Source: Candidatus Harpocratesius repetitus
GTDB lineage: Archaea > Asgardarchaeota > Lokiarchaeia > Sigyniarchaeales > Promethearchaeaceae
Length of the DNA stretch: 32,000 nt
NCBI GenBank assembly: GCA_021498095.1
Contig: JAIZWK010000001.1
Span: 1,440,001-1,472,000, forward strand
Direction of reading: 5' to 3'
This document shows, piece after piece, positions 29,508-31,405 of this stretch. The position numbers and the translations under genes are program-made. Numbering within the stretch: the stretch's first letter is position 1; each line of letters opens with the position of its first letter. A model generated the notes under the pieces. That model searched no databases, was not told the origin of the DNA, and saw only the letters and a program-made list of their open reading frames with translations.

Positions 29508-30377
29508 ATGGATGCCATGGATCAATTGATGGAACTGGAAAGAAATAGTGCTTTTGCGAATAAGTTAAATGATGTTAGATCATTTTTAAATAATAAAAAA
29601 GTCATAATTGCATTTTCTGGTGGTAAAGATAGTGCTTTATTAACCTATCTTGCTTCAAAATATGCAGAAAAAGTTCTAGCTGTTTTTATTCATTCAGAAT
29701 TATCACCAAGTATAGAAATATTTCAAGCAAAATCGTTTTGTGAATATTATAATATTCCCTTTCGCTCCATTTCAATTCCATTATTAGGAATTCAAATGAT
29801 TCAAAAAAACAATTCTAACCGATGTTATTACTGTAAACAGCTTTCATTAAATAACTTAGAAGAACTTGCAGAAGATATGGGTTATAATTTAGTAGTTGAT
29901 GGAACTAATTATTCTGATTTAAATTTAGATAGACCCGGCCTTCAAGCATTGAAAGAAAGTCGTGTAGAATCTCCTTTCGCATTAGCATCAATATCAAAAC
30001 AAGATATTATCGAAATAAGTCGTTTGCTAAATCTGATTTCACAGCACTATACTTCTCAAGCTTGCTTAGCTTCTCGAATTCCTTTTAATCTTCCTATTAC
30101 GCCAGAATTATTACAGAGTATAGATAAAAGTGAAGCATTCATCCGCTCCTTACTTCCTAATAAGCATTCATCTTTACGTGTTCGAATTCAGCAATTGTTA
30201 CCCACCAAACAACTACTCGCTCGAATCGAAGTGGGCTCAGATTTTTACAAACTTCTTTCAAACGCTGATACCCGCGCAAAAATTGTAAATAAACTGCGTG
30301 AATATGGGTTTACTTATGTTACATTGGATTTAGAGGGATTTCATAGTGGTTCAATGCACAAAATGCTAGATGTTTGA
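29508..30377 (+). CDS. larE: ATP-dependent sulfur transferase LarE (PP-loop)
   Basis: FSGGKDS, RCYYCK, DGTNYSD..DRPG, ACLASRIP and YVTLDLEGFHSGSM motifs. Confidence 0.92.
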   Translation: MDAMDQLMELERNSAFANKLNDVRSFLNNKKVIIAFSGGKDSALLTYLASKYAEKVLAVFIHSELSPSIEIFQAKSFCEYYNIPFRSISIPLLGIQMIQKNNSNRCYYCKQLSLNNLEELAEDMGYNLVVDGTNYSDLNLDRPGLQALKESRVESPFALASISKQDIIEISRLLNLISQHYTSQACLASRIPFNLPITPELLQSIDKSEAFIRSLLPNKHSSLRVRIQQLLPTKQLLARIEVGSDFYKLLSNADTRAKIVNKLREYGFTYVTLDLEGFHSGSMHKMLDV

Positions 30378-30423
30378 AATCTGATTTCTAATATCTCTTG
30401 TGAAATATTTTAATAAAATTATG

Positions 30424-30439
30424 GGAAAAAAAGGAAAAT
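30424..30439 (-). terminator. U-rich archaeal terminator after the SECIS-like hairpin
   Basis: AUUUUCCUUUUUUUCC run on the minus strand. Confidence 0.4.
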
Positions 30440-30455
30440 CCCCTCATACAGAGGC

Positions 30456-30491
30456 GTCAGATTTTCTCCAAGGTTTATAGAAAATCATCAT
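30456..30491 (-). ncRNA. candidate SECIS element (eukaryote/Loki-type kink-turn core) in a 3' UTR
   Basis: The minus strand reads A-UGAU GAUUUUCU AUAAACCUUGG AGAAAAUC UGAC. This gives tandem G.A core pairs, a perfect 8-bp helix and AAA in the apical loop, starting 17 nt after the stop of a TGA-containing ORF. Confidence 0.72.
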
Positions 30492-30507
30492 TCAACGGAT
30501 TTTTTGT

Positions 30508-30807
30508 TTATGCTTCGACCAGCACTAAGCGTTTAAATGCTGCCCAGCCTGCAATGTCTATTTTTGCTTGAGTCCATAGATGTGCTAAGCGTTTATCCAA
30601 ATAAATCGGATACTTAAATTTCTCTACTTTTTTTATTTCAAACGCATTTTTATCTTGAACCATTTCTTCACTGGCTGGTGCTACAACATTAACCACTTCT
30701 GTGCCACATCAACCGCGGTAAATTCGTTGAAACACAACCAAAATTGGTTTCTCGAATTCTTTTGCTTGTTCTTCCATGTATGCGGAAGCCTCAGAGCTAA
30801 TATGCAT
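30508..30807 (-). CDS. candidate selenoprotein, HesB/IscA-like small protein with G-U-C-G motif (99 aa)
   Basis: ATG 30807 MHISSEASAYMEEQAKEFEKPILVVFQRIYRG-TGA(30711-30709)-CGTEVVNVV...LVEA*. SD-like GAGTGA upstream and a SECIS-like hairpin downstream. Confidence 0.75.
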
Positions 30808-30923
30808 AAGTGATCATATCACTCAAATTAATGATACATTTTAAGGTTGTGCATTGTAATTGAACGTTCAAGCCGTAAAAAGAATTATAAAAAATAGGAT
30901 AGGAATGATGAGATTAAGATTTA

Positions 30924-31165: not shown

Positions 31166-31405
31166 TCAGCAAAATTCTGTTGATAAATATCTTTCTCCAG
31201 TGTCTGGAAAGACTGTAACAATATTATATTTCTGTGTTTTATCGAAATTTGATAATTGCGTTTCCAAAATTTCAATAAATTTAAACACACATGCTAAAGC
31301 AGCTCCTGAAGAAATTCCAACAAAGATTCCCTCATTTTTTGCCAGATAACGTGCATATAAAAATGCTTCCTGGTCTGAAATAGTTAGAATATAATCGATT
31401 AATTC
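31166..31405 (-). pseudogene. cysK: C-terminal fragment of cysteine synthase (PLP fold II)
   Basis: ELIDYILTISDQEAFLYARYLAKNEGIFVGISSGAALA..IVTVFPDTGERYLST. Preceded by an in-frame TGA; the N-terminal PLP-lysine part is absent. Confidence 0.85.

Follow-up and report, generated by a model that had tools for sequence, protein, structure and literature searches.

A probable Lokiarchaeota-type SECIS element behind a CC/Se-motif gene with an in-frame UGA in Candidatus Harpocratesius repetitus

The CC/Se-motif gene and its 3' UTR

The window analysed here is a stretch of 32,000 nucleotides from the genome of Candidatus Harpocratesius repetitus, which consists of a single contig of 4.36 Mb with 31% GC. 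A 99-codon gene with an in-frame UGA lies on its minus strand, and the 3' UTR of this gene holds a 69-nt structured element (minus strand, 30503-30435). The features of the locus are as follows, in the order in which they would be transcribed:

30508-30807, minus strand: 99-codon selenoprotein gene of the CC/Se-motif family with the motif YRG-U-CG, assigned by an NF041239 match and by homologues
30709-30711, minus strand: UGA codon 33, in frame and conserved among homologues, predicted to be read as selenocysteine
30497-30503, minus strand: 5' strand of the lower helix, AAAAUCC, which pairs with 30435-30441
30488-30493, minus strand: 5' side of the predicted K-turn, with G30493 (pairs with C30456), the 3-nt bulge A30492-A30491-U30490, and G30489 and A30488 of the AUGA core
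30479-30487, minus strand: 5' strand of the upper stem, with U30487 (U.U with U30459) and eight Watson-Crick positions
30468-30478, minus strand: apical loop AUAAACCUUGG, 11 nt, in which AAA comes early and G is the final base
30459-30467, minus strand: 3' strand of the upper stem
30455-30458, minus strand: 3' side of the predicted K-turn, with G30458 and A30457 (expected to form sheared pairs with A30488 and G30489), and C30456 and G30455 of the short adjoining helix
30442-30454, minus strand: side hairpin CCUC-UGUAU-GAGG, the third arm of a three-way junction
30435-30441, minus strand: 3' strand of the lower helix, GGAUUUU
30426-30432, minus strand: U7 tract two bases 3' of the element, a likely archaeal transcription stop

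The NCBIfam model NF041239 (“CC/Se motif family (seleno)protein”) matches the 99-residue protein with an E value of 1e-7 and 32 bits, below its 40-bit cut-off, and a Pfam search with the 99-residue read-through protein returned no match. Among the 32 homologous matches listed, from relatives and from the genome itself, 31 have one or two in-frame TGA codons. The TGA falls in the same motif in all 29 homologues that were translated, and the protein is conserved on both sides of it. The gene has homologues in 12 of the 13 genomes from the same taxonomic family and in four of five genomes of two other families of the order; none was found in the 42 genomes searched of a further family.

The genome has the equipment for selenocysteine. 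It encodes a tRNA-Sec, a SelB/EFSec homologue (247 bits, above the curated cut-off), a selD gene with one in-frame TGA and a vhuD/FlpD gene with two. Its L7Ae-fold proteins are two only, L7Ae and L30e, in line with the literature, in which Asgard archaea are described as lacking SBP2.

Two neighbours of the gene deserve description. A gene for a PP-loop ATP pyrophosphatase (window 29508-30377, plus strand), with weak matches to NAD_synthase, QueC and ATP_bind_3, runs convergent to the selenoprotein gene, and seven orthologous loci in other genomes (L012-L018, 44-74% identity) have the same pair, which hints at a functional link between both proteins, for example in sulfur or selenium transfer. 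On the minus strand at 31166-31387, a 73-residue frame aligns with PALP, a family of PLP-dependent enzymes, at the C-terminal end of the profile alone (positions 243-276 of 295; 27 bits, under the cut-off) and looks like the remnant of a cysteine-synthase-like gene.

An earlier sequence-only reading had placed a eukaryote-type SECIS-like hairpin on the minus strand here, about 220 nt 3' of the UGA. Each base and helix that it named within 30503-30435 lies at the position given, and the distance from the TGA (30711-30709) to A30491 of the core is 220 nt. Read on the minus strand, the upper helix is formed by GAUUUUCU (30486-30479) and AGAAAAUC (30467-30460), and all eight of its pairs are Watson-Crick. 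AUGA (30491-30488) stands directly 5' of the upper stem and GA (30458-30457) directly 3' of it. AAA occupies positions 3-5 of the apical loop, whose penultimate base is G. The bases GUUGA lie between the lower-helix strand AAAAUCC and AUGA, and CG lies between A30457 and the side hairpin. The gene ends with a TAA stop at 30510-30508; the lower helix begins 4 nt past this stop and the core 16 nt past it.

RNAfold, run on the element alone, returned the three-helix shape as both the minimum free energy fold and the centroid fold (-16.3 kcal/mol). This energy is ordinary for the base composition (z = -1.17), so thermodynamics alone does not set the element apart. Pattern descriptors discriminate poorly as well: a loose one (AUGA, stem, loop, GA) returned 841 matches in the genome and 373 in the reversed genome, and one for the three-way junction returned 255 against 105 in the control, or 48 against 23 with the loop AAA added, which makes such descriptors too unspecific for a census of this AT-rich genome. 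One strong SECIS-like match of the three-way-junction descriptor lies at C1:1474604 (plus strand), about 2.6 kb past the end of the window, and has a 10-bp stem and a 19-nt loop starting with AAA.

Recurrence and covariation of the element

The 3' UTRs of selD and vhuD in the same genome, which the sequence-only reading had proposed for comparison, show the same build: core, 8-bp stem, loop with UAAACUUUG, GA and a small side hairpin. The core reads ACGA behind selD and AUGA behind vhuD. Behind vhuD a lower helix encloses core, stem and side hairpin; in the selD UTR a lower helix could not be clearly discerned. The loop word UAAACYUUG has 116 copies in the genome, three of which were found on inspection to stand in a SECIS context: those of the window element, selD and vhuD.

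We scored the element with a covariance model (R1) that annotates the upper helix only and whose seed of 21 elements comprises 19 homologous UTRs from other loci and the selD and vhuD UTRs of the same genome; the window element was left out. Run on the 32-kb window with filters off, R1 gave 30503-30428 a score of 50.6 bits (E 8.4e-9), a highly significant outcome of the covariance-model check that had been suggested, with the next best match at 15.9 bits; most of the training UTRs belong to homologues of this gene, and the score therefore reflects shared ancestry in part, not independent recurrence alone. Genome-wide, where R1 was applied to 150 of 7016 first-look candidates, a sample that is no full census and that missed the elements of other paralogues, the window element ranked first (50.6 bits), followed by selD (40.9) and vhuD (40.3), both of them training members, and by a fourth match at 28.6 bits. 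We rejected this fourth match (C1:418737-418813) as a SECIS and regard it as noise, as it lies inside an open reading frame for a 263-aa membrane protein.

Rfam at the gathering threshold gave no match anywhere in the window, and a search of 30300-30900 at E values up to 10 returned no SECIS family, the eukaryotic SECIS model (SECIS_1) being without a match. This is the expected result, since the main text of Mariotti et al. 2016 (PMC4989117) states, in the part cited here, that none of the eukaryotic, archaeal and bacterial SECIS models detects anything in the Loki genes.

We took the 3' UTRs of 29 homologous genes and parsed them for a 7-10 bp stem with AAA in its loop, preceded by AUGA and followed by GA, with one free base between stem and motif on either side. 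Elements were parsed in 25 of the 29, beginning 4-50 nt past the stop. AUGA is present in all 25 of these CC/Se-family UTRs, and the only exception in the seed alignment is selD with its ACGA; in alignment A4 the AAA columns and GA are invariant. The stems are wholly different in sequence between lineages, yet paired. In the alignment of the 25 elements, 94.9% of the upper-helix cells are paired, compared with 56.6% in shuffles; this alignment was fitted to the model structure and thereby favours that structure somewhat, although the margin is large. All eight upper-helix pairs show changes on both sides, the covariation score of 1.02 (0.25 in shuffles) was reached by none of 500 shuffles, and sliding the partner by 1-3 columns lowers pairing to 27-53%. 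The covariation that the sequence-only reading had asked for in orthologous UTRs is therefore strong. Even where protein identity falls to about 25-30%, the element has kept its place and shape and shows compensatory changes. A run of U5-U10 also follows it in the orthologues L012-L018.

The single TGA-less homologue (L036) has no R1 match at E <=0.05, and no AUGA/GA hairpin was seen downstream of it. In three homologues with an in-frame TGA (L019, L020 and L023, from genomes G008, G001 and G014), R1 gave no match and the parser detected no AUGA/GA hairpin in the first 150 nt past the stop; a SECIS at a greater distance, or one of a different form, may serve them.

The genome of Candidatus Harpocratesius repetitus has four paralogues of the CC/Se-motif gene. 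The three outside the window are at C1:3231793-3232092 (minus strand), C1:2400903-2401232 (plus strand) and C1:2668775-2669080 (minus strand), and their loci include L032 and L038. An AUGA/GA hairpin lies just 3' of two of these three; the third (L032) has a weak R1 match only (25.8 bits), in which bases other than GA follow the stem. Two TGA codons stand side by side (G-U-U-G) in L039, in L040 and in the related copy at 2668775; the SECIS of this copy, at about C1:2668734, has the same 8-bp stem and 11-nt loop, together with a side hairpin.

FlpD/VhuD genes, which in 14 relatives occur in a Sec form (one or two TGAs) and a Cys form, offer a measure of specificity. Among 19 Sec-type vhuD loci, R1 found matches in 8 at E<0.01 and in 11 at E up to 0.11. 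All 11 lie downstream and on the strand of the gene; ten are no more than about 250 nt away from the FlpD match, and the eleventh (L080) is about 1.3 kb beyond the gene. In 29 Cys-type FlpD loci (about 95 kb), by comparison, the best match has 17.6 bits and an E value of 0.46. As R1 is dominated by UTRs of another gene family, the vhuD matches give cross-family support that it recognises a class of SECIS. Relatives hold many FlpD/VhuD paralogues of both forms, and in the comparison of L083-L098 and L078-L080 with L055-L077, L081 and L082, R1 matches occur only behind Sec forms. Family f3 is without the CC/Se gene, yet has such elements (L090, L092, L093 and L097).

K-turn geometry and the side hairpin

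The sequence-only reading had proposed a quartet of U.U, A.G, G.A and U.C pairs with an apical AAA. The bases are all present, and the AAA, U.U and tandem G.A positions stand; the U.C pair does not. G30493-C30456 is the first pair of a short helix beside GA, so that A30492-A30491-U30490 form a 3-nt bulge and U30490 sits in this bulge. The canonical helix extends for only 1-2 bp before the junction. Among the 25 sequences, the pair between the base two positions 5' of AUGA and the base directly 3' of GA (-1b/-1n) is G-C in 16, A-U in 7 and C.U in 2, and the next pair of the short helix is formed in 17. At the level of sequence, the element has what a K-turn, a motif that kinks on binding Mg2+ or L7Ae, would need: bases for tandem sheared G.A pairs, a 3-nt bulge and a flanking pair that covaries. 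The -1b/-1n covariation would agree with an ordinary K-turn whose bulge has 3 nt and whose canonical helix is very short and runs into a junction. An alternative pairing of CGUUG with UGACG, raised as a caveat earlier, needs sequences that homologues do not conserve; what they conserve instead is the short helix beside GA.

Alignment-based folding is of limited use for the outer helices. MAFFT misaligned several sequences among the trimmed cores (A2), and RNAalifold, run on a MAFFT alignment of 11 full elements, recovered the upper helix only, because the side hairpins differ in loop length. For this reason, we tested the three-way junction by constrained folding with shuffled flanks as the control: the K-turn and upper stem were fixed and the flanks were folded freely. 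A junction in which a lower helix of at least 5 bp encloses a side hairpin of at least 4 bp formed in 18 of the 25 homologues; when the flanks were shuffled, the number averaged 6.1 and never exceeded 9. The side arm also stands behind selD and vhuD in the same genome and behind vhuD in relatives, and it recurs behind two unrelated selenoprotein families (the CC/Se-motif genes and vhuD) and in several genera. The sequence-only reading had called the side hairpin atypical; it is instead a conserved trait of the lineage.

We tentatively suggest, at somewhat less than even odds, that the SECIS of Lokiarchaeales is a K-turn built into a three-way junction that resembles a k-junction, with a side hairpin of 4-7 bp placed 1-3 nt past GA and within the lower helix. 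If this is true, it could be the third arm that makes SBP2 dispensable, for instance by offering a place where SelB, L7Ae/L30e or the ribosome can dock. The main texts of PMC4989117 and PMC11227280, in the parts considered here, describe an internal loop and a lower stem and leave a side arm unmentioned. A literature search on SECIS elements and three-way junctions in archaea gave, as judged by title and abstract, no paper on Asgard or Lokiarchaeal SECIS elements.

Alternative explanations, proposed function and comparison with known systems

Three other origins of the hairpin have to be weighed. It could have arisen by chance in AT-rich intergenic DNA, where, as the descriptor counts above show, loose SECIS-like patterns match hundreds of genome sites (841 against 373, and 48 against 23 with junction and loop AAA); the leave-one-out R1 E value of 8.4e-9, the compensatory changes and the conserved position and shape effectively refute this. 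A hairpin that serves transcription termination or mRNA stability only, with no part in recoding, would account for the U-run 3' of the element here and in orthologues and for a bacterial-type scan that flagged the side hairpin with its U-rich tail as terminator-like. Such a hairpin, however, has no need for an invariant AUGA/GA, a loop AAA, a fixed 9+11+9 geometry and a covarying K-turn flanking pair, nor does it explain why the same build stands behind unrelated selenoprotein genes and not behind Cys paralogues, and we consider it quite unlikely. Termination in archaea depends mainly on oligo-U, so the U7 tract can be the stop while the structure acts as a SECIS.

Less likely still is a K-turn of the box C/D type, be it a small guide RNA or a generic site for L7Ae, whose place behind the gene would be accidental and unrelated to recoding. 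The core of this copy does read AUGAUGA ... CUGA, a perfect C box and D box, and the only weak Rfam matches are to C/D snoRNA families (SNORD30 with 18 bits and E 7.3, others with E >2), but all of these are far below gathering scores. From the start of the C box to the end of the D box there are 35 nt, and the 27 nt between the boxes form a perfect 8-bp hairpin, which leaves neither C'/D' boxes nor a single-stranded guide (about 12 nt would be expected). Homologues conserve only AUGA and GA, not the additional UGA of the C box or the CU of the D box, and the element tracks genes that contain a TGA.

We therefore conclude, with a probability of roughly 0.9 and on evidence from sequence comparison, that the minus-strand element at 30503-30435 is a functional Lokiarchaeota-type SECIS (type I, eukaryote-like) that serves the 99-codon CC/Se-motif gene in whose 3' UTR it lies. 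Its geometry, its leave-one-out R1 score, its covariation and its likeness to the selD and vhuD elements all support the eukaryote-type SECIS-like hairpin first proposed for it. In the mRNA, AUGA and GA would give tandem sheared G.A pairs and a 3-nt bulge, and so a predicted K-turn, on top of which the 9-position upper stem and the 11-nt AAA loop would sit; the K-turn itself would be set within a three-way junction with the small side hairpin and the 7-bp lower helix. The structure may then recruit the Sec-specific elongation factor with Sec-tRNA(Sec) to a ribosome on the same mRNA. Candidate binding partners are L7Ae, L30e or SelB itself, no SBP2 being known in Asgard archaea. The UGA at codon 33, 220 nt upstream, would be decoded as selenocysteine rather than as a stop, and transcription would probably end at the U7 tract just past the element.

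At the RNA level, the element is an independent argument for reading the upstream 62-residue “hypothetical protein” as a selenoprotein of 99 residues. A 2026 review (PMC13188914) gives the CC/Se-motif family for bacteria only and counts 11 archaeal selenoprotein families without CC/Se among them, so the known Asgard selenoproteome would grow. The set of about 35 aligned elements points to a Lokiarchaeal SECIS with a conserved third arm, which bears on how eukaryote-like SECIS elements are read in the absence of SBP2 and on the evolution of the eukaryotic element. With models such as R1, selenoprotein genes that have been overlooked in Asgard genomes could be detected.

Several known systems resemble the element to differing degrees. 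It shares with the euryarchaeal SECIS of Methanococcales and Methanopyrus a place in the 3' UTR, an archaeal host and action at a distance on a UGA, but lacks the GAA_A bulge and the GC-rich stems of that form and has the AUGA/GA core instead. The k-junction motif (Wang et al. 2014) is cited in PMC11227280. A third helix reportedly leaves the non-bulged strand of a k-junction beside a very short helix, and the third helix of the window element would be placed alike. The likeness to a box C/D K-turn lies in the predicted tandem sheared G.A pairs, the 3-nt bulge and the neighbouring U.U, with this copy at the C-box/D-box consensus. The differences are that the window element has no guide regions and no C'/D' boxes, that its C/D-like extensions are not conserved and that its K-turn/L7Ae site is a predicted one. 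Compared with the eukaryotic SECIS of form 1 (SECIS_1), the place in the 3' UTR, the AUGA/GA core with its non-Watson-Crick quartet or K-turn and the lower helix agree, whereas there is no Rfam match even at an E value of 10, no SBP2, and an extra side hairpin that makes a three-way junction.

The closest counterpart is the lokiSECIS. Mariotti et al. 2016 (PMC4989117), in the main-text passages cited here, describe it as AUGA, a 9-bp stem, an 11-nt apical loop and GA, close to the end of the CDS, with first loop bases that are mostly A and a last base that is an ultraconserved G. The Asgard type I eSECIS-like element, its equivalent in the corresponding passages of Huang et al. 2024 (PMC11227280), has a GA_[G/A]A core, a stem of 7-15 bp with at most 2 mismatches allowed and a loop of 8-20 nt. 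Directly 3' of the upper stem, lokiSECIS and Asgard type I elements have GA, rarely AA. Judged against these descriptions, the window element agrees on each point: AUGA, nine stem positions (U.U and eight pairs), an 11-nt loop, AAA, G as the last loop base, and GA. It also lies, like them, a few bases past the stop of a gene with an in-frame UGA, in a genome with the Sec machinery and without SBP2. It departs from the published lokiSECIS, as far as these passages describe it, in three respects: its penultimate loop base is G and not the usual A; a conserved side hairpin stands between GA and the lower helix, where the papers have stem, internal loop and lower stem only; and it serves a CC/Se-motif (NF041239-like) gene, a family absent from the archaeal selenoproteins in the cited parts of PMC4989117 and PMC11227280. 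The element is a new instance of an already known class of RNA.
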